Source of the DNA: Thermoplasmata archaeon
Lineage (GTDB): Archaea > Thermoplasmatota > Thermoplasmata > Lutacidiplasmatales > UBA184
Assembly: GCA_021817245.1 (NCBI GenBank)
Contig: JAKAVQ010000001.1
Span: forward strand, 212,265 to 276,264
DNA length: 64,000 nucleotides
Direction: 5' to 3'
Positions within the stretch are counted from its first letter, which is position 1; every line of letters starts with the position of its first letter. The position numbers and the translations under genes were made by a program. Positions 20,860 through 48,670 of this stretch are shown piece after piece. The notes beneath the pieces are model-generated. The model made no database searches, was not told where the DNA came from, and saw only the letters and a list, made by a program, of their open reading frames with translations.

Positions 20860-21081
20860 CTAGACGGTCTCGATCTCGACGAGCACGCGCAGACCCCGCA
20901 GCTGACGGGTCAGCTCGTCGGAGAGGTCAAGGATCTGCTCCCGGTTCGCCGGACCCGACCAGTCGTACACGAAGTCGTAGTTGCCCTGCGTCGGCGCGAA
21001 ACCGCACAGCCGCAGTCGGTCCGCGACGACCGAGGGCTTCGCGCCCTCGCTCGAGAACGTCACCCGGAGGTACGTCTCCAT
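20860..21081 (-). CDS. small hypothetical protein (73 aa)
   Basis: METYLRVTFSSEGAKPSVVADRLRLCGFAPTQGNYDFVYDWSGPANREQILDLSDELTRQLRGLRVLVEIETV. The upstream 285 codons of the ORF are Arg-rich junk. Confidence 0.45.
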   Translation of the reverse strand: METYLRVTFSSEGAKPSVVADRLRLCGFAPTQGNYDFVYDWSGPANREQILDLSDELTRQLRGLRVLVEIETV

Positions 21082-21920
21082 CGCTGGCGGGACGTCGGCG
21101 GGCGCACAAAGACCTTGCGGCCGAGATCCGGTCGTACGAGGGCGAGGAGCGTCCCTTCCAGGGCGCCGGCCCCCCCGGGGGGAAACCGGCGCGCCGGAAG
21201 CCCGACCCCCGCCGAACGGACCGCGACCGCGCCGCTCCCGCGGGCGGCCCTCGCGACGCCGATCCCGAGATCGGCCCCGTCGATCGCCGATTCGGCGAGA
21301 TGTCGAGCCCGCGCCGTGGTCCGCGCCCGCGATGAAACCCGGGGGGACCGCGCGGCTCGCACGCGGGGCGCGGGGAACGCCGCGGCGAGCGCGGCGACGA
21401 TCGCGGGAAGGTCGGCTCCGAGCTCGACCGCGACCCGGATCTCGAGCGGCGCCCGTCGACGTCCCTGGGCATCGATCGTCCCGGCCCGGATCCGGCGGGA
21501 GCTGACGGGCTCCAGGTCGTCGGCGAGGGCGACCGGGACGACCACGAGCGGCAGGCGGGATCGACCGAGACGGCGCCGCTCCGCGTTCACGGCCCGGCCG
21601 CCGGCGACCGTGTCCGCCGAGACGACCAGCGCATCGACCCCGTCCTCGACCGACCGTCCAAAGCGATTCTCGAGGGGGACGAGCCGCCAGCGCCGGGCCG
21701 GGTAGTGCGACCGAAGCCACCGCTCTAGGTTCGCCCGACGTCGTCGGTAAGGCTCGAGCTCGCGCGGGAACGGCTTCGGGTGCTCGGCGAGGTAGGCCTC
21801 GGTGGTGAGCCCGATCGACACCGACCGGCCGACCCGGAACGCCGTGGCGAGCAGGGCCTCGTGACCGACGTGCAGGTGGTCGAAGGTCCCCCCCAGCACG
21901 GCATGCCGGACGCGACCCAC
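21060..21920 (-). CDS. coaD: phosphopantetheine adenylyltransferase, archaeal type (cytidylyltransferase fold), with an unusual ~120-aa C-terminal extension
   Basis: AGGAGG SD then GTG. HAVLGGTFDHLHVGHEALL (H/TxGH nucleotidyltransferase motif). C-terminal …ISRRIRAGTID typical of archaeal PPAT. The frame then stays open ~120 codons further (Ala/Arg-rich); this may be a real extension or GC-driven read-through. Confidence 0.65.
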   Translation of the reverse strand: MGRVRHAVLGGTFDHLHVGHEALLATAFRVGRSVSIGLTTEAYLAEHPKPFPRELEPYRRRRANLERWLRSHYPARRWRLVPLENRFGRSVEDGVDALVVSADTVAGGRAVNAERRRLGRSRLPLVVVPVALADDLEPVSSRRIRAGTIDAQGRRRAPLEIRVAVELGADLPAIVAALAAAFPAPRVRAARSPRVSSRARTTARARHLAESAIDGADLGIGVARAARGSGAVAVRSAGVGLPARRFPPGGAGALEGTLLALVRPDLGRKVFVRPPTSRQRWRRTSG

Positions 21921-21928
21921 GGACCCTC

Positions 21929-22120
21929 CTAGGCAAAGAGCCGGCTCAGGAACGCGATCAGCAGGATGGCGATCGCGCCGTAGAGCAGGTAGGTGTACAT
22001 CCGCCGCGTCGCGATCTGCTGGGCCCGCTTCTCCCGACACGCCCGGCTGCAGGTCTCCTCGTCGACCGCGCAGACCCGTCCGCAGACCCGGCAATGTCGG
22101 TGGTCGGTCTCCGAGGGCAT
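21929..22120 (-). CDS. DUF2116-like small Zn-ribbon membrane protein
   Basis: 63 aa. CRVCGRVCAVDEETCSRAC (C-x2-C…C-x3-C) followed by a single TM helix LLYGAIAILLIAFLSRLF. Confidence 0.55.
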   Translation of the reverse strand: MPSETDHRHCRVCGRVCAVDEETCSRACREKRAQQIATRRMYTYLLYGAIAILLIAFLSRLFA

Positions 22121-22176: not shown

Positions 22177-25100
22177 CTAGGTCCGGCGAACGCGGCGACG
22201 CAGATCACGGTCCGACGGATCCGGCCCCAGCGCCGGCGTCGGGTCCATCGGGTTCGGGGGGTCCGATTCGGCAAAGGAGCGGTACGCCGCCGCCGCCCTC
22301 AGCTCCGCGTCGAGCTCGTCGTCGGTCGGGATCGGGGGCGGTGCGGGACGGGAGGGCCGGGCCGCCGGCCGGGGGCCGGCCTTCAGGACATCGTGGGTCT
22401 CTGCCGAGAGCTGCTTCAAGAGGTTCAGCCAGATCCGGCCCTGGTGGGCGATCGTCCCCTCGAGGCGATCGCGCAGGTCGCTCGTCTGCTCGAGGAGCTC
22501 GCCCTCCACGCGGCGGAGCTCACGGACCAGCTCCCGGCGTAGCTCGTTGACGCGCGACTCGGTCTCCTCGGAGGCCGGACCGCGCTTCTCGAGCTCGGCG
22601 ACCTTGAGCCAGGTCTTCCGGACGACGGGGAGGACCCGGTCGCTCAGCACCAGCAGGCGCCGGTCGAGGTCGTCGGCCTCCTGCCGGATCGACCGCTCGA
22701 CCCGCGCGAGGTCGGTCTCGCGCTGCTGCAGCTTCGTCTCGAGCCGCTCGAGCCGAAGGATCGACTCCGCCTGCGCGGCCTTGAGCCGGAGCTCCGCGTC
22801 GGCGAGTCCCGCGGCGACCACCTTCTCCTGGTCGCCCCGGGCCGACTCGAGCGCCCGCGCGACCCGGTCCCTCACCGCGGCATCGAACCGGCTCGAGTCG
22901 ATCGTCTTCGAAAGGGCCTGATCGACGTCGGCCTTGAGCCGCGCGAGCAGCTCGACGTACTTCTCGCGCTCCCGCTCCTGGTTCTCCCTCAGCTTCTGCT
23001 CGAAGAACGCCTGGAGCCGGACCTGGAGGCCCGCGACGGCCGACGAGTTCGCGTCCGCGATCTCCGCGATCCGCGCCTCGCGCTCGGTCTCCGCGCGCTT
23101 CTCGACGTCGTCGATCCGCTCGTCGGCCAGCTGGAGGAAGTGCTCCCGTTGGTCGGCGATCTGCGTGGCGAGACGGCTCTCGAGGTCCTTCGCGCGCCCC
23201 TCGACCAGGATCGCGACCCGTTGCTCGAGCTCGCGGACCTCCCGGACCCTGTGCTGTTCCGCCGCGTCCGACTGGGACTTGAGCAGCTCCCGAACGCGCG
23301 CCTCGAGCTCCTCCCGGACGGCGGTGACCTGTTCCTTCGATTCCGCCACCTCGAGGTCGAGCTGGGCGACGAGGGCGGCCCGCAGCTCCTCCTCGGATCG
23401 GGCGGACCGTGCCTTGATCTCCTCGAGGTTCTGGCGCAGCTCTTCGCGCAGGCGCTGGGCCCAGAGCTCCCCGGTCGACTGCACCGCCTGCCGGACCTTC
23501 TCCGAAAGGTCGGGAAGGGCGGCGTCCAGCGAGGCGCGCAGCCGCTGCTCAAGGTCGGTGGAGAGCGCGGTGACATCGACGGCCGGCCGGGCCTCGAGCG
23601 GGGCGAGGCGCGCGCCGAGATCGGTGCCGAGTCGAAGGATCCCCTGGGCGGACCGGTCCGAGACCTCGCGGAGGCGCGTCTCCATCGTTCCGAGGAGCTT
23701 CGTTTCGAGCATCGCCGGGTCCGGCGGGGCCGGGGAGCGCTCGAGCGCCGCGACACGAGATTCGAGGAGCCGAAGCGCCTCGCCGTCCGGTTCTCGGGCG
23801 GCCGGCGCCAAGGGGCGCGCGGTAGGAAGACCTGTCACCGGGGGGAACGGGCGGTCCGGCTCGGGGGCCGGCGGGGGTGCCACGGAGGCGAGCCCCGTGG
23901 GGCGGATCTCGGGAGGAGGGGCCGAGGGCCGGATCGACGGATCGTCGCTCACGGAGACGGGCACCGAGGCGGACGGCGGGACCCGTACCTCGGTCGGACG
24001 CTGGAGCCACGGCGGCACCGTCGACGCGACCGGGTCGGAGGGGTCGAGGACCGGTGGGGCGGTCGGAGAGAGACGGCTCTCTTCGAGTCGCGGCAGCAGG
24101 ACCGATGGCTGCGCCTGCACGTACTCGTTCGCGCGCTTCGCGGTCTCGCCGCTCATCGGGACCGAGCGACCCTTCGGGCGGCTCAGGAGGATCGCGGCGG
24201 TCTCCATCGCGGTCGCGATCCGCCACATCTCCTTGCGCCGGTCGCGGCCGCCCTGGCGCTCGGGGTCGTGAAGGTGCGTGACGGAGCGGCCGGACTCGAC
24301 CACGTCGACCCGCCGGGCGATCTCGGCGAGCTTCGATTCGAGCCCGTCCCGGGCGTACTGGAGAACGAGCGGCAGCGACTCCCGGGCGCGAGCGGTGGGC
24401 GGGTGGGTGAGGTCGCGGACGCTGACCGGGGCGAGTTCCCAGGACTGGATCCGCTTGGAGTGCCGGTCCCCCTGAGCCTCCCCCTTCGGCACGCGCATCA
24501 GCGCGAGCGTGAGCGGGATCTGCTCGGTGAACTCGTGGGTGTTGACCTTCGCCTCGGGCAGGAAGTAGGGGAAGACGAGGAACGCGCCGAGGGAGAGCAG
24601 GGAGCCGGGCAGGAGCCGCACCATGTCCTGGACGACCTGGTTCCCCGCCTCCCACTGGTCGGCGGCAACGACGACGACCGGATCGCTCGTCCCCCGATGG
24701 AAGAGGAACCCCTCGCCGACGGCCTGGTAGACCGACGGGTCCGGGTCGACGGTCGGGTGGGTCGGCTGCGCGGGCCCGCCCATCGTCGCGTGGGCCCGCA
24801 GCACCGCAGGTCCGAACTCGCCGGTCGCGAGCAGGTCGGCGGTCGCGAAGACGAGCGTCTTCATGCCGAGCCGGGGACGGTCCTCGGTGGAGAGGAACAT
24901 CCGGCCGACGCACGTGTACCGTCCGTTGGCCGCCGGGTACAGGAACAGGTTGGGGTAGAACGAGAGCGGCTGGGCCGGGTCCGGATCCCAGTAATCGTGG
25001 GTGTCGGCGATGTTGATCGTCAGGTTGCCGACGATCCGGATCGCCTCGAGCGTCTCGCGCCGGCCCGGGAACTCCTCGGGGATGGTCGTGTACCCCGGGC

Positions 25101-25185
25101 TCTCGGCCTCGTTGTCGACCTGGCGGCACCAGACGACCGCGACCGGCGAGAGTCCGGCCGCGACCGGCCCGGATCCGAGCGCCAT
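22177..25185 (-). CDS. 1002-aa protein: novel N-terminal globular domain (~330 aa), Pro-rich linker, ~500-aa coiled coil, acidic C-terminal region
   Basis: Start MALGSGPVAAG at 25183-25185, overlapping the TGA of the upstream GTPase gene (ATGA). The N-domain has an alpha/beta-like pattern (…AVVWCRQVDNEAESPGYTTIPEEFPGRRETLEAIRIVGNLTINIADTHDYWDPD…). The linker is PPxP-rich (residues ~500-600). Then comes a long heptad-rich Glu/Arg/Leu/Ala coiled coil. The 5' 176 codons of ORF 22177..25713 overlap the GTPase gene in another frame and were discarded. Confidence 0.7.
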   Translation of the reverse strand: MALGSGPVAAGLSPVAVVWCRQVDNEAESPGYTTIPEEFPGRRETLEAIRIVGNLTINIADTHDYWDPDPAQPLSFYPNLFLYPAANGRYTCVGRMFLSTEDRPRLGMKTLVFATADLLATGEFGPAVLRAHATMGGPAQPTHPTVDPDPSVYQAVGEGFLFHRGTSDPVVVVAADQWEAGNQVVQDMVRLLPGSLLSLGAFLVFPYFLPEAKVNTHEFTEQIPLTLALMRVPKGEAQGDRHSKRIQSWELAPVSVRDLTHPPTARARESLPLVLQYARDGLESKLAEIARRVDVVESGRSVTHLHDPERQGGRDRRKEMWRIATAMETAAILLSRPKGRSVPMSGETAKRANEYVQAQPSVLLPRLEESRLSPTAPPVLDPSDPVASTVPPWLQRPTEVRVPPSASVPVSVSDDPSIRPSAPPPEIRPTGLASVAPPPAPEPDRPFPPVTGLPTARPLAPAAREPDGEALRLLESRVAALERSPAPPDPAMLETKLLGTMETRLREVSDRSAQGILRLGTDLGARLAPLEARPAVDVTALSTDLEQRLRASLDAALPDLSEKVRQAVQSTGELWAQRLREELRQNLEEIKARSARSEEELRAALVAQLDLEVAESKEQVTAVREELEARVRELLKSQSDAAEQHRVREVRELEQRVAILVEGRAKDLESRLATQIADQREHFLQLADERIDDVEKRAETEREARIAEIADANSSAVAGLQVRLQAFFEQKLRENQEREREKYVELLARLKADVDQALSKTIDSSRFDAAVRDRVARALESARGDQEKVVAAGLADAELRLKAAQAESILRLERLETKLQQRETDLARVERSIRQEADDLDRRLLVLSDRVLPVVRKTWLKVAELEKRGPASEETESRVNELRRELVRELRRVEGELLEQTSDLRDRLEGTIAHQGRIWLNLLKQLSAETHDVLKAGPRPAARPSRPAPPPIPTDDELDAELRAAAAYRSFAESDPPNPMDPTPALGPDPSDRDLRRRVRRT

Positions 25186-26357
25186 CAGCTCCCCTTGGTC
25201 GCGCGGCGCTCGAGCACCCGCTCGCAGGCGCGGGCGAGGGGGAGGGTCGTGTTGACCATCACCGGTACCCCCATCGTGGGGGTTCCGACGTTCGGCGACT
25301 CCTCGCCGGTCTCCCCGACGAACATCGGATGGCCCTCCCCGGTCGAGACGGCGCTCGACACGAGGAAGACGTCCTCGCGGACGGATAGGCCACGACCGTC
25401 CTGGGCGACGAGGATCGTCCCCATCCCGGCACCGTCCCGACGGAGGAGGAACTCGACCGGATCGAACGCGCTGTGGTACGTCCGGTCGCGCACCGACTGC
25501 TCGACCTCGGAGTAGAAGTCCTTGAGCTTGTCTGCCTTCGAGATCGCGATCACGAGCGGGAGGTTGCGGCTGCGGACATAGCGGAAGACGCCGCGCGCGA
25601 GGTTGACCTGCTGGGCCTGGTCGCGGAGCGATGGGAGCGCCGGTGAGAGGAGCAGGATGACGGCGTCGGCCCCCTGGACGAACCGTCCCAGCAGGGTGAG
25701 ACCCCGACGCCACAGGTCGCGCCGGTCCGGGCGCCAGGAATCGAAGTGCGGGATCACGCGGCAGGTCTTCTCGCTGACCTCGCCCTCGGGGGAATCGATC
25801 CAGAGCCGGTCGTAGGTGAAGTAATCCGCGATGATCCCGCCGGCCTCGTCGATCGTGCGGAGCTCCATCGGGCGGGACGCCGCTTCGCCGTTCGGCGCCC
25901 CGTAGCGGAAGCGCATCGTCATCTCGACGAACTGGTTGAACTTCGTCGGCAGCGGATACTTCGTCAAGACGCCCTGATCTTCGCGTCCCGCCGCAAGCTC
26001 CACCCAGAGCTTCCGCCGGTCCTCCATCGGACGATTCACGTAGTACCGGGTCGTCGTCTCGAGGCTTCCCTCGGGGTCCGTGGGGTCGGTCGTCTCGTAC
26101 GTCGTCTCCTCGAGGGCGACGTCGTTCTCGAGCTCCCCGTAGAGCGGGAGCGTCCCGTTCTCCGGGCGGGTCGGCACGTAGAGGATCGGCAGGTTGAGGC
26201 CGAAGTGGCCCGAGAGGAAGCGGAAGTAGGTCGTCTTGCCGGACGCGGGGATCCCGACCACGGCGATGCGGGCCGTGTCGAACGACGGCTTCGACTCCCG
26301 TTCGCGTTTGGACCCGGCTCCCCGGCGGGTGCGCGTCGTGACCTTGACCTCGGGCAT
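25185..26357 (-). CDS. divergent Arf/Sar/SRbeta-like small GTPase with insertions and a C-terminal extension (390 aa)
   Basis: G1 VVGIPASGKTTYF (cf. Arf GLDxAGKTT), G3 TIDEAGG (DxxG), G4 ISKADKL ([NT]KxD-like), G5 VSSAVSTG (SAx). There is an ~80-aa insert between G1 and G3, and a ~100-aa Gly/Val-rich tail. Confidence 0.7.
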   Translation of the reverse strand: MPEVKVTTRTRRGAGSKRERESKPSFDTARIAVVGIPASGKTTYFRFLSGHFGLNLPILYVPTRPENGTLPLYGELENDVALEETTYETTDPTDPEGSLETTTRYYVNRPMEDRRKLWVELAAGREDQGVLTKYPLPTKFNQFVEMTMRFRYGAPNGEAASRPMELRTIDEAGGIIADYFTYDRLWIDSPEGEVSEKTCRVIPHFDSWRPDRRDLWRRGLTLLGRFVQGADAVILLLSPALPSLRDQAQQVNLARGVFRYVRSRNLPLVIAISKADKLKDFYSEVEQSVRDRTYHSAFDPVEFLLRRDGAGMGTILVAQDGRGLSVREDVFLVSSAVSTGEGHPMFVGETGEESPNVGTPTMGVPVMVNTTLPLARACERVLERRATKGS

Positions 26358-26376
26358 CGAACGGCCTAGCGCCTCC

Positions 26377-27879
26377 TCACCGCATCTCCGCGAGGCATAT
26401 CTCGATGAAGTCGAGCGCGCCCTCGACGGCGGGCCCGCCGGTCGAGAGCTCGAGGCGCGCGTCCTGCAGGAGGCCGAAGACCTCCTCGACGGCCGACTCG
26501 TGCTTCAGTGCGGCGTCCTGGAGATCGCCCTCCCCGGCGAGGCGGGTGAGCTGGTACGTTCCCCGCAGATCGAGCAGCTTGGCGAAGAGGTCCATGAGTT
26601 GCGTCCGCGCCCCGGCGTTCCCGTTCGCGAGCGCATGCTCGGTCGAGTCGATGAAGCGCACCAGCGTCTCGGTCTCCTTGTCGTTCTGCATCCGGGCCTG
26701 GAGCATCGCGAGCCGGCGGAGGACCGCGCCCTGCGACGGTGACGGGAGCTTCTCCGCTTCGGTCCACGCCTGGAGCAGCGCCCGTGCCGCCTCGACGACG
26801 GCATGGCGGGCGTACTGCACCCGGGCCTCCCAGTACAGTCGTGTCACCGCCGGGAGCACCAGTTGGGCTTTCGCGATGCGGGAGAGCGCAAGGTCGTACT
26901 CCCCCTGGAGGTACGCCTCGACGATCTCGCCGAGCGGACCGTACCGTTCCTTGAGGTACGCGGGAGGGCCGGCCGCGCTCGCGAGCACGCCGACCTCGAG
27001 GTCGGGCGCCTCCGTGTACGCGTTCACGCCGTTCGCCCGGGCCGCGACCTGCGCGCTGCGGATCCGCGCGACCGTCGCGTGCTGCTGCGGCTCTTTCAGC
27101 GCGCGGGCGGCGTTCGCGGCATGCCGAGCGAGCTCTTCGGGATGCATCTCTTCGAGTGCAAGGTCGCTGTCGTACGAGACGTCGATGAACGCATGGACCA
27201 TCTGGGTGAAGAGCGCGGTCCCCGTGGTCACCTCTTGGAATCCGAACGGCGCCGGCAGCCCGAGCGCCTGGGCGCGCGCGGTGAGCTGATCGATCAGCTG
27301 GTTCATCCGGCCGGCGTCGACGCCCTTGTCCCGCTCCGTCCCGTTCCCGATGCCGATCAGGCGCAGCGAGAGCCGGGAGTTCGCGGGGAGCAGGTACGGG
27401 ACGAGATCGACCTTTCCCTCGGGCAACGCGGCCCCGGGCGAAGCCCGGACATCGAAGCGGCCCGAGGCGTTGTCCCATCCGTCCGTCACGAGCACGAGGT
27501 TCCCGCGCACGCCGTCCGTGCCCTGGCGCAACAGGTCGGCGCCGGTCGCGATCGCGTCCCAGATGGCGGAGCGGCCGCTCGGCGTCAGGAGCGAGATGAG
27601 GTTCTCGATGTAGGGGAGGTTCTCCTTGTGGATCTCCCCGAGCGGTACGGGGACCCGGACCACTTCCGTGAACGTCACGAGACCGAAGAGCGCCCCCGAG
27701 TTGGCGGCCTCCTCGAGGATGCGAAAGACGGCGGTCCGGGCGACCTCGACCTTCTGGCGCTCCGGCCGGCTCGTGTCGGGATCCGGTAGCGGCGCGAGCA
27801 TGCTCTTCGAAAGGTCGAGCAGGAGCACATGGCGCTCGCGGGCAGCGGCCGGTACCGAAGCAGGTGCGTCGTTCAACAT
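26377..27879 (-). CDS. von Willebrand factor A (vWA) domain protein with MIDAS motif and C-terminal alpha-helical domain
   Basis: HVLLLDLSKSM (DxSxS), …SGRSAIWDAIATGADLL…, NLVLVTDGWDNAS (T…D of MIDAS). ~300-aa helical C-terminal half. Lies 19 nt upstream of the GTPase gene on the same strand. Confidence 0.8.
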   Translation of the reverse strand: MLNDAPASVPAAARERHVLLLDLSKSMLAPLPDPDTSRPERQKVEVARTAVFRILEEAANSGALFGLVTFTEVVRVPVPLGEIHKENLPYIENLISLLTPSGRSAIWDAIATGADLLRQGTDGVRGNLVLVTDGWDNASGRFDVRASPGAALPEGKVDLVPYLLPANSRLSLRLIGIGNGTERDKGVDAGRMNQLIDQLTARAQALGLPAPFGFQEVTTGTALFTQMVHAFIDVSYDSDLALEEMHPEELARHAANAARALKEPQQHATVARIRSAQVAARANGVNAYTEAPDLEVGVLASAAGPPAYLKERYGPLGEIVEAYLQGEYDLALSRIAKAQLVLPAVTRLYWEARVQYARHAVVEAARALLQAWTEAEKLPSPSQGAVLRRLAMLQARMQNDKETETLVRFIDSTEHALANGNAGARTQLMDLFAKLLDLRGTYQLTRLAGEGDLQDAALKHESAVEEVFGLLQDARLELSTGGPAVEGALDFIEICLAEMR

Positions 27880-37856: not shown

Positions 37857-38825
37857 TCAGAGCATCACGCGAAGGTTCAGCTTGTCGGTGAGCTCCTTGT
37901 AGCGGTTGCGGATTGTCACTTCGGTCACGCCCGCGACCTCGGCGACCTCCCGCTGGGTGCGGCGTTCGCCGCATTGGACGCTGGCGATGTAGATCGCGGC
38001 GGCCGCGACGCCCGTGGGGCCACGGCCGCTCGTGAGCTCGCGCTCGGTCGCCTCCTTCAGGATGTCGTTCGCGCGAGTCTGGATCTCGCCCTTCAGCTTG
38101 AGCTCCGAGCAGAACCGCTGGATGTAGTCCTGCGGCCGGGTCGGCATGAGCTTCAGGTGGAGCTCCCGCGTCATGAAGCGGTACGTGCGGCCGATCTCCT
38201 TGCGACCGATCCGGGACTTCGACGCGATCTCGTCGAGGGTCCGCGGCACGTTGCACTGCCGGCAGCTGCCGTAGAGCGACGCCGCGACGACCCCTTCGAT
38301 CGAGCGGCCGCGGATCAGGTTGCGATTGACCGCCTTACGGTAGATCATCGCCGCGGTCTCCCGCACGTTCCGCGGGAGCGCCATCCCCGACGCGATGCGG
38401 TCGAGCTCGGCGAGCGCGAAGGCAAGGTTGCGTTCGGTCGCGTTCGAGACCCGGATCCGTCGCTGCCACTTGCGAAGTCGGTAGAGCTGCGCGCGGTTCC
38501 GGGTCGGGATCGACTTCCCGTACGGGTCCCGGTTCTTCCAACCGATCTCGGTCGAGAGACCCTTGTCGTGGATCGTCAGCGTCGTCGGAGCGCCGGTCCG
38601 CGCCCGCTTCTCTCCCTGCTCGGCGTCGAACGCCCGCCAGTCCGGTCCCTGGTCGATCATCGACTCCTCGAGGACGAGGCCGCACTCGTCGCAGACGAGC
38701 TCCCCGCGCTCGTAGTCGCGCGTGAGGTGCGTCGACCCGCAGCTCGTGCAGCGGGTCGGCACAGCGAGGTCCTCCGGTCGGGCCGCGGGCTTCTCCGGGT
38801 TCGTCGGCGCCTCTTCGTTCTGCAT
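37857..38825 (-). CDS. tfb: transcription initiation factor IIB (TFB)
   Basis: N-terminal Zn ribbon [25 protein letters not shown]-finger/linker, two cyclin-fold repeats. 322 aa. Confidence 0.95.
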
Positions 38826-39140: not shown

Positions 39141-40328
39141 TTACGGTCGGGGGCGCGACCGGGTTCGAGCCCGCCCCGCCGGGGCGTCCGCGGACCCCTC
39201 CTCGGCCGGAAGGGAGAGGTCGCGGGGCGGGGAGAGATCCGGAGGAACGTACGGGACGTAGAGCGACTGACGGTACGCGCGCTCCTCGGGCAACTCCCTC
39301 GACTCCTCGGGGGGCCCCTCGGGGTCGGCCACCGGATCGGGCCCGAGCGGTTCGTCGACCTCGGCGAGCTCGTCCGTGCTCCCGGAGTCGGGCGGCGGCG
39401 TGGCATCGAGGTCGCTCTCCAGGCCTGAGGCGAGGTCGAGCGGCTCGTCCGTCGCTTCCTCGGTCGAGAGTGGTGGGCCCTCGGCGGCCAGCTTCCGCTC
39501 GTGCGTGAGCCGGCTGACCTCCGCCCAGAGCGCCTCGATCTCCTCCTCGGGGCTTCCGTACCGACGGTCCTCGCTGATCGCGGCGCGGACCTGCGCCATC
39601 AGCCGCGCCGCGCTCTGCGCGTTCTGCGCTCTCCCCTTGATGCGCTGGAGCCGGCGGGCGAGGTTCCGCGCCTCGATCAGGATCTCCTCCTCCTCGCTCG
39701 GGGTCACCGAAGGAAGCGCGGGCGCCCGCGGGATCCGGGCGACCGCCCGGCGAAGCTCGAGAAGCCGCTCCGCCGTCGACGGGATGTTCGCATCCTGCGC
39801 CGCTTGGACGAGAAGAGAGAACTGGCGGGTCGCTTCCGAGACTTCCTCGCCCCGGTTCCGGGCGCGGCGGATCGATTCGCCGAGCTGCTGGCCCTCCTGG
39901 AGGCAGAACTTCGGGATCGCATCGTTGAGGACGGCGAGCGCGAGGGAGGCGCTCGCCGCCGCCTTTTCGAGCGAACCCGCGCTGAGCGGCTCGTCCTTCA
40001 ACCGACGGCGGGGGTGGCCGACCCGGGCATCGAGGTGCGCGACGTCGACGCCGATCGTCTGCGCGATCGCGCGGAGATCGTCGACCCGTCGCAGGAGCTC
40101 GCGGACCCACGTCCAGTCCGGGCCGACCCGAGCGAGGAGCGCTTCGCCCCGCTTCACGACCGCGAGCGCCTGGAGGGGCGCGTCCTCGTCGAGCGCCTGC
40201 TCGAAGGCCGTCCCAATCTGTTCCGTCGGGAACGGCAGACCCTCCGCCTCGAGGAGCCGGCCACGCTCGAGCACCGCGCGCAGCCGGGCGCGTCCCTCCC
40301 CGAGCGCCGGGTCCTCCACGACCGCCAT
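39141..40328 (-). CDS. acidic alpha-helical hypothetical protein (395 aa)
   Basis: Ala/Leu/Glu-rich with low Arg bias: MAVVEDPALGEGRARLRAVLERGRLLEAEGLPFPTEQIGTAFEQALDEDAPLQALAVVKRGEALLARVGPDWTWVRELLRRVDDLRAIAQTIGVD… . Starts 3 nt after the stop of the upstream gene. Confidence 0.5.
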   Translation of the reverse strand: MAVVEDPALGEGRARLRAVLERGRLLEAEGLPFPTEQIGTAFEQALDEDAPLQALAVVKRGEALLARVGPDWTWVRELLRRVDDLRAIAQTIGVDVAHLDARVGHPRRRLKDEPLSAGSLEKAAASASLALAVLNDAIPKFCLQEGQQLGESIRRARNRGEEVSEATRQFSLLVQAAQDANIPSTAERLLELRRAVARIPRAPALPSVTPSEEEEILIEARNLARRLQRIKGRAQNAQSAARLMAQVRAAISEDRRYGSPEEEIEALWAEVSRLTHERKLAAEGPPLSTEEATDEPLDLASGLESDLDATPPPDSGSTDELAEVDEPLGPDPVADPEGPPEESRELPEERAYRQSLYVPYVPPDLSPPRDLSLPAEEGSADAPAGRARTRSRPRP

Positions 40329-40331
40329 GGC

Positions 40332-41597
40332 CTACGACCCTCCGCTGGCCGCGAGCACCCGCATCAGTTGCGTGAGCGTCTCGTCGGCCTCGCGCAGTCG
40401 GCGCGCGCGCAGCAGGTCGGTGGCCTGGCGGATCTGGACCGCGGCGTCGTGGGCGGTCTCGCTCTCCGGCGGGAGCGTGCGGACTCGGCCGGCGAGGCTG
40501 CGGGCCTTCCGAAGCAGCCGGTCGAGCATCGCGTCGTCGCTCTCCGTCGGGGAACCCGGGGCGGGAGCCGAGGAGGGAGGCGGGGGCAGTCGCTCGAGCT
40601 TTTCGAGCTCGCGGCGGAGCTCGCGAACGCTCTGGATCGCCTCGGAAAGCCTCCCCTTCTTCAAGTGGCGGGAGGCTTCGGCGTGGAGGCGGCGGGCGCT
40701 TGCGCCGACCGCATGCTCTTCGGGAAGCACGTCGAGGACCGAGCCGCTCCGCTGGAGCTCGGCTTCGAGCGATCCCGGGATCGCTTCGTGCAGCAGCATG
40801 AGGGTCTGCGCGGCCTCCTGGGCGAACGTGTCGAGCGCTTCCTCGGTGATCTCCGCGTCGCGGATCCGATCGCGCAACGCTTCGAGCTCTCCGGAGATCT
40901 CGCCGAGCGGGAGGCCGAGCTCCGCGGCGTCGTTGCGCAGCGACTCGATCCGGCCCAGCAGACCCTGAAGGCCCTTCCAGTCGGACTCGAGCTGGGATAG
41001 TCGGCGTTCGGCCTCGACCAGGAGCCCGACCGCCTCGGGCCGACGACCTCCCTCTAGGGCGTCCGCGATGCGTTCGAGCTCGTCGCCGAACGCGAAGCGG
41101 ACGTCCGCGCCGCGCAGCGCGTCGCGGCGCGCCCCGAGCGAGGCGAGCCGCTGCCGTACGACCTGGTCGGTCTCCGCTTCGATCCGGCTCTGGGCCGAGC
41201 GCAGGACCGTGAGCGCCTCCCCGACCTGGCCGTCGGCTTCCATTAGGGCCGCCTGGCAGAGCTCGCTCGTCACGTCGGGGCCCCGTCCGAGCTCGTGGCT
41301 CAGGTCCATGCGGGCGCGCAGGTCCCGGCTGATCGTGCCGTTGAGCTCGCTCTCGGGCGAAGGCGGCGGCCGGATCCGGGCCCGGGGGCCGGGGGTCGGG
41401 ACGCCGGGCACGGTCGGGGGGCCGGTTCCGCCGTCCGGCCCGGCCGGCCCGGAGGGGGTCGCCTCGACCGCGTGCAGCCCCTCGATCGCGAGCGCCGTCG
41501 GAAAGCCGCAGACCGAACAATGGGCCGCGGTGGAGACGATCGGTTGCTCACAGATCGGGCAGCTGGCTGGCACAGACCGTCGTCCTACGCCGGACAC
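40332..41597 (-). CDS. N-terminal Zn-ribbon plus coiled-coil hypothetical protein (421 aa)
   Basis: CPICEQPIVSTAAHCSVCGF (C-x2-C-x10-C-x2-C), a Pro-rich linker, then a long helical region. Start codon ambiguous (GTG). Confidence 0.5.
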   Translation of the reverse strand: MSGVGRRSVPASCPICEQPIVSTAAHCSVCGFPTALAIEGLHAVEATPSGPAGPDGGTGPPTVPGVPTPGPRARIRPPPSPESELNGTISRDLRARMDLSHELGRGPDVTSELCQAALMEADGQVGEALTVLRSAQSRIEAETDQVVRQRLASLGARRDALRGADVRFAFGDELERIADALEGGRRPEAVGLLVEAERRLSQLESDWKGLQGLLGRIESLRNDAAELGLPLGEISGELEALRDRIRDAEITEEALDTFAQEAAQTLMLLHEAIPGSLEAELQRSGSVLDVLPEEHAVGASARRLHAEASRHLKKGRLSEAIQSVRELRRELEKLERLPPPPSSAPAPGSPTESDDAMLDRLLRKARSLAGRVRTLPPESETAHDAAVQIRQATDLLRARRLREADETLTQLMRVLAASGGS

Positions 41598-43205: not shown

Positions 43206-46040
43206 TTGCGGGGCCCCGCGAGTGCCGGGGAAACTACAAGAGGCCAGTCCTTCCATGCTGAGCCCACCGGATGCTCGCCAACCCGTTCGGCGATTGAGGG
43301 ACCCTTGCCCGAGGAGCGCGCGCACGAGCCGCCGCGCACGGGCCGAGTGTCGACCGGGAACACGGGCGTCGATACGATGCTCGAGGGGGGCCTCGTCCCT
43401 CGGCGACCGTACCTCATCGTCGGACCGTCGGGGACCGGAAAGACCACCCTCGCGCTCCAGTTCCTCATCGACGGTGCCCGCCGCGGAGAGCGGACGCTCT
43501 TCGTGACGACGGAGGAGCCCCCGAACGAGGTCCGCCTGAATCATCGCGCGCTGGGTTCCTCGCTCGACGATGTGGAGGTGTTCGACGCGATCCCGGACAT
43601 CATGCGCTACGAGCGCACCCCGTTCAAGGACATCGCGTCGGTGCGGGCGGTGACCCCGTTCCGGGAGGTGCCGCTCGAGATCCGACGCTCCCCCGAGCTC
43701 TCCGCGGTCGAGGTGACGATGACCGGGCTCGAGCAGATGATGCGCAGCGAGGTGCCCCGGCGCGGGTACTCCCGCATCGCGATCGACTCGCTGACCGCCC
43801 TTCAGTACTTCTGCATGAAGGGGTTCGACCCGGTGGCCGGAGCCCAGGCGTTCCTCCGCTTCCTCTCGGACCTCCGCGTCACGACGATCCTCACGGTCGA
43901 GTCCCCGCTCGAGGACGTCGAGACCCCCGAGCGGATGCTCGCGCGCGGCGAGATCCGGCTGTTCCGCTGGGAGCTCGACGGACGCACGGTCCGTGCGATC
44001 GGGGTCGAGAAGTTCCGCGGGAGCAGCCACGATGTCCGGCTTCACCCGTACCGGATCGGATCGCGCGGCCTCGACGTGAACCTGGACGTGACGATCTCCC
44101 GGGACACCCGGCAGATCTTGGAGACCCCGCTCCCTCCGCCGGAGGCCGTCTCCTCGCCCGTTCCCCCGATCCCCGAGGGCACCTCCTCCCCGGTCGACCC
44201 CTTGGGCGACGGGGTCCGAGACCTCGTGCTCGCCGGGGCCGAAGTGGGGCCGGTACGGACCGAGATCGAAGCGGCGCTCGGCGCGGCGGTGGCCGGGGAG
44301 ACCGACCGGCTCCAGGGCCACATCTCGCGCGCCGCCGCGCTCGTCGTCGCGGCGGGAGAGGGGCTGCACGACCGGCTGAAGGACACGGTGCCGAACGACG
44401 CGGTGGTCGCGGGGGCCTATCAGCGGATCCGACAGCGCAACGAAGCCGCGCGGGCCGGTCTGCCTCCCACGACGCTCCCGCCCCCGAAGCTTGTGGGGGC
44501 CCAGCTCGAGTGGGTGCTCTCCCTGTTGCCGCGGACCGCGCCAGGGGGGTCTGGGGGAACGCCGACGGTGGTCCCGCCGGCGACCATGGAGGCTCCGGCG
44601 AACGCCCCTGGGGCTCCGGAGACCCCGGCAGGGGAGCCTTTTGGGCTGGCGCTCGCCGACCGCCCGTCGCGCCTCACGCCCGATCGCCCCGTGGTCTCCG
44701 TTCCGGCCGTCCTCGGGCTCCCGCCCTCCGAGCCCGAGTCACTTCCGCCCATCTCCGTGAGCGGAGGCGAACCGTTGAAGGAGCTGACGACGGACGCGCT
44801 GACCGCCTCCCGCCGCACCGACCTCGGCACCCAAAGCGGAATGGCCGGGGAGGGTGCCCGCGATCCTGAGGTGCTCGCGTCGACGAGCCGTGCTTCTGTC
44901 GCTTCCGATCCGAGGTCCGACCGCCCGATCGAGCTCCGGCCCCTCACCCTGGAAGCGGAGTCCGCCAGTCCACGGGCGCCCCCGCCGCGCCCGGAAATGG
45001 CCGAAACCGGTCGGGTCGGAGAGCCGACCTCGACCCTCCCAGCTCCTCCCATGGCGCCCCCCTCCACGTCGGACGAAGCGGCGCCCACGCCGTCGATTGC
45101 GCACGGCCGATCGGAGCCGACCGGCATCCTCGCCGGCCCGATGGAGGCAACCGCGTCTCCGGCGGTTCCCGCGGCCGGCCCTCCGTCGCTCCCGGTGGGC
45201 GAGATCGCTGAACGGGCTCCGCGCGCTCCTGAGGAGACCCTTCTCCCCCCCGAGGACCGGTCGGCGCCGCCGACCGGCCGGCTGCCGTCTCCGCCCACGG
45301 CCATGGCGCGTCGGCCACCCCTCCCGACCGTCGCGAGCATGGCCCCGCGGCCGAGTCCCCGGCGCACGCCGTCGCGGGCCAGTACCGCCCCGGCGGCGGC
45401 CATCGCCACCGCCCGGGCGGCGGTACCTTTCGCTACCGCCGGCGCCGAGGCTGGACCTCCGGCCGGGTCTCCTACAGTCGCCCCGGTTCCGCCGGTCGCC
45501 GCCCCCCCCGCGGTGGACGCCGGCCCCGTCTCCCCCTCCTCGCCAGTCTCGGCCCCGGCGGGGGGATCCGTCTTCCCGGCCCCCAGCCCTCTGGCTCCGC
45601 CCGAAGCACCAGGGTCGCCCGCCACCGCTGCAGTCCCCCGTCGCCGACGCCGCACCTCCACGCCCAGGAAGAAGGCGGCAGCGCCGGCCCCCGCGGAGTC
45701 GGTTCCGACCGAGACTCCCTTGGTGACCTCGACGAGCGCGGAAGGCGGAGCCGTCGAGGGGACCATCGCCCCGGCAGTCCCTCTGGTGGAGGGTGCGGTG
45801 GCGGCCGGGTCGACGAAGCCGAAGCGCCGGCCGGCCCGTAAGCGCAAGGCGCCCCGAGTACTCGCCGCCAAACCCGGGCCGCTCCCACCCGAGTCGTCGG
45901 ATCCGTCCGGCGGGGACCCGCCACCGGTCGCGGCCCGGGATCCGCCCACCGATCCGATCCCCCGGTCATCCTCCGAGGCCCCGCCGAGCCCACCGTCGGA
46001 ACCGCCGCCGGAGCCCCCACCCCCGTCGGAGCCGTCGTGA
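43206..46040 (+). CDS. KaiC/RecA-superfamily ATPase domain (~300 aa) fused to a ~600-aa Pro/Ala/Ser-rich disordered region
   Basis: …VSTGNTGVDTMLEGGLVPRRPYLIVGPSGTGKTTLALQFLIDGARRGERTLFVTTEEPPNEV… (KaiC-like Walker A region), with an extra Walker-B-like segment RIAIDSLTAL. From residue ~330 onward, low-complexity P/A/S/T. Likely true start at GTG 43347. The downstream gene start overlaps this stop (GTGA). Confidence 0.7.
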   Translation: MRGPASAGETTRGQSFHAEPTGCSPTRSAIEGPLPEERAHEPPRTGRVSTGNTGVDTMLEGGLVPRRPYLIVGPSGTGKTTLALQFLIDGARRGERTLFVTTEEPPNEVRLNHRALGSSLDDVEVFDAIPDIMRYERTPFKDIASVRAVTPFREVPLEIRRSPELSAVEVTMTGLEQMMRSEVPRRGYSRIAIDSLTALQYFCMKGFDPVAGAQAFLRFLSDLRVTTILTVESPLEDVETPERMLARGEIRLFRWELDGRTVRAIGVEKFRGSSHDVRLHPYRIGSRGLDVNLDVTISRDTRQILETPLPPPEAVSSPVPPIPEGTSSPVDPLGDGVRDLVLAGAEVGPVRTEIEAALGAAVAGETDRLQGHISRAAALVVAAGEGLHDRLKDTVPNDAVVAGAYQRIRQRNEAARAGLPPTTLPPPKLVGAQLEWVLSLLPRTAPGGSGGTPTVVPPATMEAPANAPGAPETPAGEPFGLALADRPSRLTPDRPVVSVPAVLGLPPSEPESLPPISVSGGEPLKELTTDALTASRRTDLGTQSGMAGEGARDPEVLASTSRASVASDPRSDRPIELRPLTLEAESASPRAPPPRPEMAETGRVGEPTSTLPAPPMAPPSTSDEAAPTPSIAHGRSEPTGILAGPMEATASPAVPAAGPPSLPVGEIAERAPRAPEETLLPPEDRSAPPTGRLPSPPTAMARRPPLPTVASMAPRPSPRRTPSRASTAPAAAIATARAAVPFATAGAEAGPPAGSPTVAPVPPVAAPPAVDAGPVSPSSPVSAPAGGSVFPAPSPLAPPEAPGSPATAAVPRRRRRTSTPRKKAAAPAPAESVPTETPLVTSTSAEGGAVEGTIAPAVPLVEGAVAAGSTKPKRRPARKRKAPRVLAAKPGPLPPESSDPSGGDPPPVAARDPPTDPIPRSSSEAPPSPPSEPPPEPPPPSEPS

Positions 46041-46816
46041 GCGCTCCCGAGCTCCGACCGGAACACCGGGTCGCCACCGGCATCCCCGGGCTCGACCGGA
46101 TGCTGGGCGGAGGGCTTGTCAGCGGCCGACCGTACCTCGTTACCGGCGGCTCGGGGAGTGGAAAGACGCTCCTGGGGCTCATGTTCCTGCTCGAGGGGCT
46201 GCGTCGGGGCGAGCAGGTGCTCCTGGTCGCGGTCGACGAGCCGCCGGCCGAGATCATGGAGAACGTCGGGGCGTTCGGTTGGGACCTCTCCCAGGTCTCG
46301 ACCCTCGACGCGAACCCGGGCACGCGGGCGATCAAGCGGAACCTCGCCGTGCAGGAGATCCGCACCATGACCGACCTTCGCTCCCTGCGCGAACTATCCC
46401 AGGAGACGAAGCGGACGAGCGACGCCGAAGACGTGTCCGTACAGTCGATCCAGCTCAAGCTGCGGCAGCAGATGGCGGACCGCCCTTTCCGCCGGGTCCT
46501 CGTCGACTCGATCACGTCGGTCCGGCGTTTCACGGTCAAGGCCTCGGTCGACCCGCAGGCGGAGCGGACGGAGATCCAGTCGCTCCTGCGCTTCCTCTCG
46601 GAGTCCGGGGTCACGACGCTGATCACGGCGAATCCGAGCGACCCCGGGGTGCTCACGCCCGAGGAGGTCCTGACCCGGGGGGAGATCCTGCTGAGCCGCA
46701 AGTGGATCGATGACCGATCGGTCCGACAGGTCAAGATCGTCCGGATGCGCGGCTGCGCGCACGACCCCGAGCGTCGTCCGTTCGTCATCACGAACCAGGG
46801 GATCGTGGTCGGCTAG
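46037..46816 (+). CDS. KaiC-like single-domain RecA-superfamily ATPase
   Basis: GTG start. TGIPGLDRMLGGGLVSGRPYLVTGGSGSGKTLLGLMFLLEGLRRGEQVLLVAVDEPPAEIMENVGAFGWDL… and Walker B RVLVDSITSV. 259 aa. Confidence 0.8.
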   Translation: MSAPELRPEHRVATGIPGLDRMLGGGLVSGRPYLVTGGSGSGKTLLGLMFLLEGLRRGEQVLLVAVDEPPAEIMENVGAFGWDLSQVSTLDANPGTRAIKRNLAVQEIRTMTDLRSLRELSQETKRTSDAEDVSVQSIQLKLRQQMADRPFRRVLVDSITSVRRFTVKASVDPQAERTEIQSLLRFLSESGVTTLITANPSDPGVLTPEEVLTRGEILLSRKWIDDRSVRQVKIVRMRGCAHDPERRPFVITNQGIVVG

Positions 46817-48635: not shown

Positions 48636-48646
48636 CGTATTTATGA
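48636..48646 (+). promoter_or_regulatory. TATA-like box (CGTATTTATGA) ~27 nt upstream of the TPR-protein ATG
   Basis: AT-rich motif at archaeal TATA spacing; no SD; implies a leaderless start at 48671. Confidence 0.4.
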
Positions 48647-48670
48647 ACACGTTGACGTCGGAGAACGGTC

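Follow-up and report, generated by a model that had tools for sequence, protein, structure and literature searches.

In eukaryotes, membrane traffic and nutrient signalling depend centrally on small GTPases that work with longin or roadblock regulators; discussion of the prokaryotic roots of such pairs is at present almost confined to MglA/MglB and the Asgard archaea. The locus described here, from a Thermoplasmata archaeon, raises the question of whether an open reading frame that the initial annotation had read as an Arf/Sar/SRbeta-like GTPase with large insertions encodes a genuine G protein, and if so of what class and with which partners. The ORF list of the 64-kb window (the whole stretch of DNA that was analysed, 64,000 nucleotides) gives minus-strand coordinates of 25185..26357 for the frame, which starts with ATG and encodes 390 aa, and its codon-position GC (GC3 0.92, GC2 0.48, in a genome of 70% GC) is typical of a real gene. 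Its parts are as follows.

25185..26357, minus strand: gene for a predicted orphan TRAFAC-class GTPase, 390 aa
26274..26357, minus strand: N-terminal tail, aa 1-28, basic (8 K/R in 28 aa), hydrophilic, predicted disordered (pLDDT <35)
26229..26255, minus strand: G1 / Walker A GIPASGKTT, aa 35-43, invariant, after predicted strand b1 (31-35)
25962..26195, minus strand: insertion 1, aa 55-132, separating helix a1 from switch I, strongly conserved
25944..25946, minus strand: T138 in invariant YPLPTK, candidate G2 / switch-I Thr
25836..25850, minus strand: G3 / Walker B DEAGG, aa 170-174, invariant, after strand b3 (162-170)
25731..25814, minus strand: insertion 2, aa 182-209, separating switch II from the helix that precedes strand b4, placed by spacing and secondary structure
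25530..25541, minus strand: G4 SKAD, aa 273-276, an NKxD variant after strand b5 (268-272), with S273, K274 and D276 invariant
25371..25484, minus strand: insertion 3, aa 292-329, separating helix a4 from strand b6, placed by spacing and a low-confidence model
25338..25358, minus strand: G5, SSA then V-S-TGE, aa 334-340, after strand b6 (330-333)
25224..25271, minus strand: near-invariant C-terminal block GVPVMVNTTLPLARAC, aa 363-378, running into the final predicted helix

The ordered series G1, DxxG, SKAD and SAx recognized at the outset is indeed present and colinear (G35-T43, T168-174, S273-276, S334-338) and is invariant in about 80 relatives. In an alignment of 49 sequences, one of them a relative of only 59% identity, G35, S39, G40, K41, T42, T43, D170, E171, A172, G173, G174, S273, K274, D276, S335 and A336 do not vary, and the motif residues are likewise invariant in 80 sequences taken from genomes; G4 reads SKSD in one GTPase of the sister clade. 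The G3 context is MELRTI-D170-EA-G173, in which an invariant Glu follows the Asp, and a Gly-Ile pair (G174 and I175, both invariant) stands at the place of the catalytic Gln of Ras and Arf. Around G5, S335, A336, S338, T339, G340 and E341 are invariant and G342 nearly so, which amounts to a Ras/Era-like SAxTGEG. The candidate switch-I residue T138 is also invariant and lies just ahead of predicted strand b2 (143-152), part of a predicted b2-b3 hairpin in a region with pLDDT <50.

The spacing of these motifs is unusual. About 80 extra residues between G1 and G3 had been noted before, and rightly, the distance from K41 to D170 being 129 residues and that of Ras and Arf roughly 85-90 residues shorter. 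Two further insertions escaped the initial annotation, one between G3 and G4 (104 residues, against roughly 59 in Ras) and one between G4 and G5 (62, against roughly 29). Insertion 1 holds an acidic, Thr-rich stretch, LEETTYETTDPTDPEGSLETTT, and is modelled by AlphaFold, at low confidence, as additional strands. At the C-terminus, the supposed tail of ~100 Gly/Val-rich residues was a misreading: 54 residues follow the SAx alanine (Gly plus Val 26%, vs 16% in the whole protein), and they are highly conserved, with G363-x-PVMVNT-x-LP-xx-R-x-C378 invariant and a C-terminal helix predicted at 371-387.

The family alignment is too shallow to yield more than a poor structural model of the GTPase (pLDDT 46.6), and the fold-search results obtained with it, in which the first 12 matches were all GTPases, are therefore only indicative. 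Within that model the secondary-structure order is nonetheless b1-a1-[insert]-b2-b3-a2-[insert]-b4-a3-b5-a4-[insert]-b6-a5, with G1, G3, G4 and G5 directly after b1, b3, b5 and b6 as in Ras. The intact protein gave no family-level match to Pfam, NCBIfam, PADLOC or PDB sequences, and no curated profile threshold was reached by it or by an insertion-deleted core. Below threshold, the GTP_EFTU profile matches the G4 region (NKxD) weakly in 43 of the 49 family members (E 0.012-0.26), and the best Pfam match of the core, over model positions 1-111 of 113, is MMR_HSR1, a generic GTPase-domain profile and that of the Era/EngA/FeoB type (E 0.0011, 19.5 bits, cut-off 21.9). Alignment of the family profile by hhalign with single sequences of H-Ras, Arf1, Sar1, Era, MglA and Adk did not discriminate among them (probabilities 1-67%) and was therefore left out of the classification. 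Motif order, predicted strand and helix order, the two weak profile matches and the fold search support the view, already taken in the initial annotation, that this is a genuine G protein and not a kinase; on these grounds the product is classed as a predicted P-loop GTPase of the TRAFAC class.

The family is narrowly distributed. An exhaustive phmmer search against 1.84 billion representative proteins returned 15 matches, which, bar two repetitive and apparently spurious proteins, were members of the same family or fragments of it, from its own clade and one sister clade at 59% identity, of Lutacidiplasmatales-type Thermoplasmata; among those representatives the family was not found in any other archaea. 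The GTPase is carried by 153 species-level genomes, and 79 of the 80 listed loci are labelled Thermoplasmata, Thermoplasmatales, Thermoplasmatota or Lutacidiplasmatales, the exception (L006) being titled 'bacterium'. As judged from sequence, the GTPase is thus an orphan, lineage-restricted and previously unclassified family, without detectable sequence relatives, universal and unusually conserved in a widespread, uncultured order of soil and peat archaea. Identity to the counterpart encoded in the window has a median of 82.8% for the GTPase, 76.8% for S19e, 72.3% for the vWA protein encoded upstream, 67.9% for eIF6 and 53.6% for the protein encoded downstream, and the GTPase is the most conserved of this set in 55 of 55 loci. 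Such extreme conservation, together with vertical inheritance, points to a core cellular function rather than to defence; that this function lies in the organisation of the cell envelope, membrane or cytoskeleton is our guess.

The GTPase gene is the middle member of a fixed three-gene operon, in the order vWA, GTPase and a downstream 1002-aa protein, with the following features.

26377..27879, minus strand: vWA protein, 500 aa, with intact MIDAS site (Pfam VWA_2 35.8 bits, cut-off 27)
27802..27816, minus strand: vWA MIDAS D22-L-S24-K-S26, invariant in both clades
26358..26376, minus strand: vWA-GTPase spacer of 19 nt carrying GGAGG, read directly
22177..25185, minus strand: downstream protein, 1002 aa, its ATG overlapping the GTPase stop
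24787..25140, minus strand: longin-type lobe, aa 16-133, order b-b-a-b-b-b-a-a in the model
24406..24738, minus strand: alpha/beta lobe, aa 150-260, repeated helix-strand units in the model
24184..24369, minus strand: all-helical lobe, aa 273-334, in the model
23716..24168, minus strand: Pro-rich linker by composition, aa 340-490, length varying among genomes
22396..23715, minus strand: Ala/Glu/Arg/Leu-rich, Pro-free region, aa 491-930, read from composition only as helical/coiled coil

The ATG of the downstream gene shares one base (25185) with the TGA stop of the GTPase gene, as read directly in the string TGATG, and the downstream gene is translationally coupled to the GTPase. The same coupling and gene order recur in the sister clade, where the overlap is likewise 1 or 4 nt and where the GTPase is 59% and its partners 40% identical. 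The vWA gene lies immediately upstream of the GTPase in all fetched loci of sufficient extent from both clades, and the wider order S19e-eIF6-vWA-GTPase-downstream protein-DUF2116-PPAT-...-M50 is fixed; synteny was constant in the 80 listed loci. None of the three module proteins has a predicted membrane anchor.

In the vWA protein, D22, S24, S26, T132 and D133 complete the metal-site motif, the distal T132-D133-G134 being also invariant, and the C-terminus is a unique 270-aa helical domain that matches no known family. Among solved structures the BatB vWA domain is closest (E 1e-4). A Sec23/24 trunk was considered for this protein; the only relatives found are BatB-type MIDAS vWA domains. The arrangement recalls the MoxR AAA+-vWA pairs (BatA/BatB, CoxD/CoxE), in which a MIDAS vWA protein is likewise encoded beside a P-loop NTPase that presumably acts as regulator of the vWA protein; in those pairs, however, the NTPase is an AAA+ ATPase and not a GTPase, and the vWA protein described here differs from theirs in its helical C-terminus and in lacking membrane segments.

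The downstream protein varies from 945 to 1209 aa among genomes and measures 555-580 aa in the sister clade, to which its conserved C-terminal block (aa 827-927, ...QGRIWLNLLKQ) is 33% identical. Searches of this protein with Pfam longin, DENN and folliculin models, PDB profiles and hhalign gave no sequence signal; hhalign of its head against C9orf72, and a search of the head profile against PDB sequences, likewise yielded nothing. The head is nevertheless modelled confidently by AF2 (pLDDT 84.2, pTM 0.88) as a module of a longin, an alpha/beta and a helical lobe, the longin topology consisting of strands 16-23 and 26-28, helix 42-58, strands 81-85, 90-99 and 105-114, and helices 115-120 and 124-133. 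The top Foldseek match of this model was C9orf72 from its ARF1 complex (E 2.8e-4, probability 0.87, 387 columns), followed by the Lst4 longin, a pilus ATPase (probability 0.12) and TagF; C9orf72 and DENND10 align over 131 and 169 residues, which together with the 387-column alignment speaks for the alpha/beta lobe, and the structural matches also include MglC, LAMTOR3, Rag C-terminal domains and Asgard longin/roadblock proteins. The longin lobe carries the invariant motifs W19-CRQVD-x-EAESP-30 and G94-RM-x-LSTE-x-RPR-x-G-x-KT-110 (F97, D102, L106 and M108 vary).

GAP-type longins carry a catalytic Arg finger next to a GP (and WD) motif of the b1-b2 loop (PMC12290439). The head of the downstream protein has invariant W19, D24 and S29-P30 in its b1-b2 region and R103 and R105 in the b4-b5 loop, elements that its topology would place next to one another; the exact GP motif is replaced by SP.

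We propose, with a probability of about one half, that the operon encodes a GTPase switch particular to this lineage, together with a longin-type protein that serves it as GAP/GEF and scaffold and a vWA protein as adaptor. The GTPase, whose Ras-like core is interrupted by three conserved insertions and preceded by a basic, disordered tail, would be the nucleotide switch of this three-protein module and would bind GTP, for which we take it to be specific, through its canonical G1, G3, G4 and G5. Intrinsic hydrolysis would probably be slow, because neither a catalytic Gln or His after DxxG nor a P-loop Asn is present. The downstream protein would dock on the GTPase, in a putative physical complex, through its longin, alpha/beta and helical (DENN-like) head, which may serve as GAP and/or GEF of the GTPase, and its long coiled coil and Pro-rich linkers may form a scaffold or tether. 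The MIDAS metal site of the vWA protein would clamp an acidic residue of a target or of one of its module partners, for which the EETTYETTDPTDPE stretch in insertion 1 of the GTPase is a candidate.

Such a switch would resemble MglA-MglB, Rag-Ragulator and the Asgard Rag/longin pairs in setting a Ras-like G domain beside a presumed regulator of longin/roadblock fold. It would differ from them in that there is no sequence relationship, in its three large insertions and its DEAGG Walker B, in a partner that is not a ~15-kDa roadblock dimer but a 1002-aa protein with a three-lobed head and a coiled coil, and in its obligatory third member, the vWA protein. MglA has a TxxGQ motif with an intrinsic Arg, which is not seen in the present GTPase. 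Here a GTPase is firmly tied to two partners, one with a longin/DENN-type head resembling C9orf72 and the other a MIDAS adaptor, and if the proposed roles hold, the module would be a compact and experimentally tractable three-protein switch outside the Asgard archaea; it would give a function to three 'hypothetical' genes that are apparently essential to the lineage, and would offer a test of whether the longin-DENN architecture is older or more widespread than has been assumed, or convergent.

A bolder version of this proposal sees in the operon a genuine, ancient homologue of the longin-DENN GAP/GEF and small-GTPase machinery of eukaryotes (C9orf72-SMCR8, folliculin or GATOR1 type), kept in a non-Asgard order; the regulator would be a single-chain longin-DENN protein fused to a coiled-coil tether, its client a strongly derived switch of the Ras superfamily, and a MIDAS vWA adaptor would accompany them. 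Were it true, longin-DENN regulation would extend beyond eukaryotes and Asgard archaea, and the architecture would serve an essential organising process in the wall-poor cells of Thermoplasmatota. Compared with the eukaryotic longin-DENN modules, the head has moderate scores and a different inter-lobe geometry (TM about 0.24); those modules are longin heterodimers, whereas here one chain carries both the head and a coiled coil; its cognate GTPase is none of Arf, Rab and Rag; and sequence similarity of the head to C9orf72-SMCR8, folliculin-FNIP, GATOR1 Nprl2/3, DENND proteins or TagF is undetectable. We consider true homology unlikely.

About equally unlikely is a ribosome-assembly or translation GTPase of the Era/EngA/Nog1 (MMR_HSR1) type, whose basic tail would bind rRNA and which would be tied to the neighbouring eIF6, S17e and S19e. 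Besides the MMR_HSR1 match, the protein shares with Era, EngA and FeoB the P-loop context GxPxxGK[ST]T...L.G, a non-catalytic residue after DxxG and the TGEG after SAx. However, cation-activated Era/FeoB-type GTPases carry a P-loop Asn, at whose position this GTPase has Ala, and KH or other RNA-binding domains are missing from it. Its conserved partners are also other ones, MIDAS vWA and longin/coiled-coil proteins without RNA-binding domains. The eIF6/S19e neighbourhood is missing in the sister clade, and S17e, on the opposite strand, separates the two gene units; absence of the family from all other archaea would in addition be odd for a ribosome factor.

The idea that the module is a domesticated or highly divergent NTP-dependent conflict (defence) system is somewhat less probable again. 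In DO-GTPase-GAP1 systems a TRAFAC GTPase with a Walker-B Glu is followed by a multi-domain GAP1, sometimes with vWA or coiled-coil components (Kaur, Burroughs, Iyer, Aravind 2020, PMC7159879). Gene order here, a GTPase and then a large three-lobed protein, fits that description, vWA and coiled-coil components are present, and Glu171 is invariant in Walker B, the exact position of the Glu not being given in PMC7159879. DO-GTPase2 is moreover a recurrent weak Pfam match, found in 18 of 49 members; as it spans only the P-loop (model positions 3-16/17 of 226, E 0.054-0.18 and hence at least 0.05), it was discarded as evidence of membership. The GAP1-N1, N2, M and C models were not matched by the downstream protein and nine relatives even at E<=10, PADLOC gave no match, and no effector domain, GASH or FNIII component was found. 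In this comparison, made by Pfam models and the published description, extreme conservation and synteny also set the module apart: it is single-copy and vertically inherited, keeps strict synteny among housekeeping genes and surpasses ribosomal proteins in conservation, the opposite of how mobile, fast-evolving conflict systems behave.

The assignment from which the question arose, a divergent Arf/Sar/SRbeta member cycling on membranes with a Sec23/24-trunk-like vWA protein and an SRalpha/Sec22-like longin protein, we regard as improbable. A Ras-like fold, the GxxxxGKTT P-loop and a longin partner (for SRbeta, the SRX domain of SRalpha) are shared features, but the likeness of GIPASGKTT to the Arf GLDxAGKTT is that of any generic GxxxxGKT(T). 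Profiles of Arf (PF00025), SRPRB (PF09439), Ras and Roc, whose use the initial annotation had suggested, and of Rag gave no match even at E<=10 with the intact GTPase, the 49 members or the insertion-deleted core, and hhalign probabilities against Arf proteins were 10-36%, the alignment to them not being reliable. G3 reads I-DEAGG-I rather than WDxGGQ, DxGGH or DxPGH, and G4 also argues against the assignment. The N-terminus was correctly described as basic and non-amphipathic: residues 1-28 are strongly hydrophilic (mean hydrophobicity -0.4 to -1.06, vs +0.3 to +0.6 for the Arf1 helix), and neither an Arf/Sar-type amphipathic helix nor an SRbeta-type transmembrane anchor is predicted; sister-clade N-termini are longer, about 60 aa, and Pro/Ala/Lys-rich. 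A tempting reading as a non-Asgard Arf is thereby corrected.

Least probable of all is a P-loop kinase or ATPase with coincidental NKxD-like and SAx-like strings, for although AAA_18 has the lowest Pfam E-value with the intact protein, as the initial annotation's counter-case of a kinase-type best profile would have it, that match is sub-threshold and confined to the P-loop region, and kinase-like profiles are reduced to the P-loop alone once the three insertions are deleted.

In the 64-kb window, tRNA and Rfam scans were empty and no paralogue of the GTPase was found; a weak tblastn match at 38010-38210, considered as a possible paralogue, corresponds to the TFB gene.

The GTPase gene (25185..26357, minus strand) starts with ATG, encodes 390 aa, and shows the codon-position GC content of a real gene (GC3 0.92, GC2 0.48) in surrounding sequence of 70% GC. 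The initial annotation had read it as a genuine small GTPase with Arf-like features, and all four of the motifs on which that reading relied were found in the order claimed:

aa 35-43, GIPASGKTT, G1
aa 168-174, TIDEAGG, G3
aa 273-276, SKAD, G4
aa 334-338, SSAVS, G5

No variation was seen at G35, K41, T42, D170, G173, S273, K274, D276, S335 and A336, either among 49 aligned sequences, a relative at 59% identity included, or among 80 sequences drawn from genomes. K41 and D170 are 129 residues apart; the equivalent distance in Ras or Arf is shorter by about 85-90, and the approximately 80 extra residues noted between G1 and G3 are thus correct. Two further insertions had been overlooked, the distance from G3 to G4 being 104 residues and that from G4 to G5 62. 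The N-terminus is basic, as described, very hydrophilic, and devoid of an amphipathic helix. The Gly/Val-rich tail of about 100 aa was not borne out, as just 54 residues follow the SAx motif, with Gly and Val making up 26% of them vs 16% of the whole protein. This segment contains an invariant TGE, a nearly invariant G342 and an invariant block, G363-x-PVMVNT-x-LP-xx-R-x-C378, and a terminal helix is predicted in it by a weak structure model of the GTPase.

The intact protein gave nothing significant in Pfam, NCBIfam, PADLOC or PDB sequences. Its weak matches were confined to the P-loop (AAA_18, the GPN-loop family ATP_bind_1, DO-GTPase2 positions 3-16, FeoB and Der), apart from one in the G4 region, where 43 of the 49 members weakly matched GTP_EFTU. 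When the three insertions were deleted, the best match became the generic GTPase domain MMR_HSR1, covering model positions 1-111 of 113 (E 0.0011; 19.5 bits, just below the 21.9-bit cut-off), and the kinase-like profiles shrank to the P-loop. This upholds the GTPase reading over a kinase, and, judged from its sequence, the protein belongs to the TRAFAC class of GTPases but to no assigned family. The proposed Arf/Sar/SRbeta membership, on the other hand, was not supported: the profile searches (Arf, Ras, SRPRB, Roc and Rag unmatched at any setting), the G3 (DEAGG-I, with neither Gln nor His), the G4 and the N-terminus are all against it.

Two alike short strings follow G3, YDRLWIDS (aa 183-189) and RRDLWRRG (aa 212-217), each resembling the Arf/Sar switch-II "RxLW" segment; insertion 2 may be the outcome of a local duplication.

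A scan of species-representative genomes yielded 153 carriers of the family. Among 80 loci listed, 79 bear Thermoplasmata, Thermoplasmatales or Thermoplasmatota labels, Candidatus Lutacidiplasmatales and Lutacidiplasma silvani among them, the exception being one titled "bacterium" (L006); close homologues of the GTPase carry the name "Thermoplasmata archaeon". Searched exhaustively with phmmer, 1.84 billion representative proteins yielded 15 hits in all, comprising same-family fragments, P0121, which is full-length and 59% identical, and two proteins that are repetitive and seemingly spurious. Given both distributions, the GTPase is an orphan family restricted to this order plus a single sister clade, and no published description of it turned up in full-text searches. 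The Lutacidiplasmatales are uncultured inhabitants of acidic soils and peat, with genomes of about 69% GC and about 2.1 Mb (PMC9287336).

The gene lies near others encoding eIF6, S19e, an S17e-like protein, TFB and similar functions, and immediately within the following series:

26377-27879, minus strand, vWA protein, 500 aa
25185-26357, minus strand, GTPase
22177-25185, minus strand, large downstream protein, 1002 aa
21929-22120, minus strand, DUF2116 zinc-ribbon protein, 63 aa, hydrophobic C-terminus

The vWA gene stops 19 nt ahead of the GTPase start, with GGAGG in the spacer, and the GTPase stop and downstream start overlap as TGATG, base 25185 being common to both. Wherever a retrieved locus reaches far enough, it shows the order vWA-GTPase-large protein, within a wider synteny of S19e-eIF6-...-DUF2116-PPAT-like-DUF5611-M50. 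In the sister clade the three genes remain together, those for the GTPase and the large protein again overlapping by 1 or 4 nt, and DUF2116-CTP_transf-M50 is retained; the large protein is shorter there, at 555-580 aa, and the eIF6/S19e neighbours are absent. Between the clades the GTPases are 59% identical and both partners 40%.

Downstream of the operon, three genes (20860-22120, minus strand) are syntenic in both clades: DUF2116, a CTP_transf_like (PPAT-type) gene and a conserved ORF of about 73 aa (METYLRVTFSSEG...), after which come DUF5611 and an M50 peptidase. Directly upstream of the vWA gene the sister clade has an extra small gene of 79-89 aa without a Pfam match:

L001, 6243-6506, overlapping the vWA start by 4 nt
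L082, 4010-4279, ending 2 nt before the vWA start
L083, 3850-4089, overlapping the vWA start by 4 nt

The arrangement makes a four-gene operon there; no counterpart was seen upstream of the window vWA gene. About 3 kb upstream of the sister-clade operon (L083/L084, 1159-2268, minus strand) lies a canonical Nog1-type GTPase gene; the orphan GTPase is therefore present alongside this ribosome-biogenesis GTPase rather than in its place.

Identity to the window GTPase ranges from 75 to 89% across 80 genomes, and the GTPase ranks first in conservation among the compared genes in all 55 loci with every comparator complete. The window holds no paralogue of it.

Median identity of the compared proteins
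GTPase, 82.8%
S19e, 76.8%
vWA, 72.3%
eIF6, 67.9%
Downstream protein, 53.6%

The vWA protein has an above-threshold VWA_2 domain (Pfam) with invariant MIDAS residues (D22, S24, S26, T132 and D133), its closest solved relative being a BatB-type vWA; no relatives were found for its 270-aa C-terminal helical domain. The downstream protein has no Pfam match and no predicted transmembrane segment. It opens with a conserved head of 335 aa, continues through a Pro-rich linker and about 440 Pro-free residues, and closes with a conserved C-terminal block; by composition we read the Pro-free, Ala/Glu/Arg/Leu-rich region as helical or coiled coil. The head was modelled confidently (pLDDT 84.2, pTM 0.88) as three lobes:

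aa 16-133, longin-type lobe, b-b-a-b-b-b-a-a
aa 150-260, alpha/beta lobe
aa 273-334, helical lobe

Its top Foldseek match was C9orf72 of the C9orf72-SMCR8-WDR41-ARF1 complex (E 2.8e-4, probability 0.87, 387 columns), followed by the Lst4 longin, an E. coli pilus ATPase (probability 0.12), TagF and a Loki longin. Structural matches were also seen to TCA17, CCZ1, Asgard and human Rag C-terminal domains, Npr2/NPRL3, Mon1, Sec22b, folliculin, DENND10 (169 residues aligned), LAMTOR3, MglC, again Lst4, SRalpha-SRX and Fuzzy. Because these scores are moderate and sequence support is absent, we treat the modelled head as a longin/DENN-like fold, not as a proven homologue. Its invariant residues cluster in the b1-b2 region (W19-CRQVD-x-EAESP-30) and the b4-b5 hairpin (G94-RM-x-LSTE-x-RPR-105, with F97 and D102 nearly invariant at the x positions), and such loops adjoin each other in a longin sheet. 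GAP-type longins carry WD and GP motifs in the b1-b2 loop, next to an arginine finger (PMC12290439). Going by the topology of the model, the parallel is suggestive.

From the anatomy of the module we infer a mechanism. Since the GTPase lacks a catalytic Gln or His in cis (its DxxG is followed by G174-I175), and has Ala38 at the P-loop position where cation-activated Era/FeoB-type enzymes have Asn, GTP hydrolysis would depend on a partner; the invariant Walker-B Glu171 may participate. Their coupled translation and co-evolution suggest that the GTPase and the downstream protein form a stoichiometric complex; the head of the latter would be the natural GAP and/or GEF, and its coiled coil could serve as a tether or scaffold. 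For the MIDAS vWA protein, the role would be to clamp an acidic side chain on either a partner or a target, a candidate being the acidic Thr-rich stretch in insertion 1 of the GTPase.

The module would work in the manner of pairs such as MglA-MglB, Rag-Ragulator, or Arf with a C9orf72-SMCR8-type partner, but membership in those families failed on every test run. A small GTPase with a longin-type regulator, as proposed here, is of a kind already known; the GTPase itself is an orphan family. The pairing of a vWA protein with an NTPase recalls MoxR-vWA, except that a GTPase here replaces the AAA+ ATPase. Bacterial GTPase-centred conflict systems (DO-GTPase-GAP1) share the Walker-B Glu, the multi-domain partner downstream, and vWA and coiled-coil accessories (PMC7159879), but, compared by profile and published description, their Pfam models are unmatched and the module's evolutionary behaviour is the opposite. 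With its vertical inheritance, single copy, synteny, lack of effector domains and a conservation above that of ribosomal proteins, the module has the appearance of a core cellular switch, not of a defence system.

Elsewhere in the window, 39141-40328 and 40332-41597 (both minus strand) are adjacent, well-coding genes of 395 and 421 aa with no Pfam family at E<=0.001. A 944-aa protein (43206-46040, plus strand) has an N-terminus that by eye is of RecA/KaiC-like ATPase type (PSGTGKTT...) and a low-complexity tail, about 650 aa long and rich in Pro, Ala and Ser, which accounts for a local GC peak (0.757); the start of a second KaiC-like gene (46037-46816, plus strand) overlaps its stop. A very large TPR-repeat protein (48671-53272, plus strand, 1533 aa) is overlapped by an antisense ORF (48641-50785, 714 aa) that has coding-like GC3 and is probably spurious. 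Two proteins have the look of surface proteins, a Kelch beta-propeller and PKD protein of 1277 aa (1411-5244, minus strand) and a PKD/Ig-like protein of 1127 aa (56904-60287, plus strand), the latter in a stretch of lower GC (0.67).
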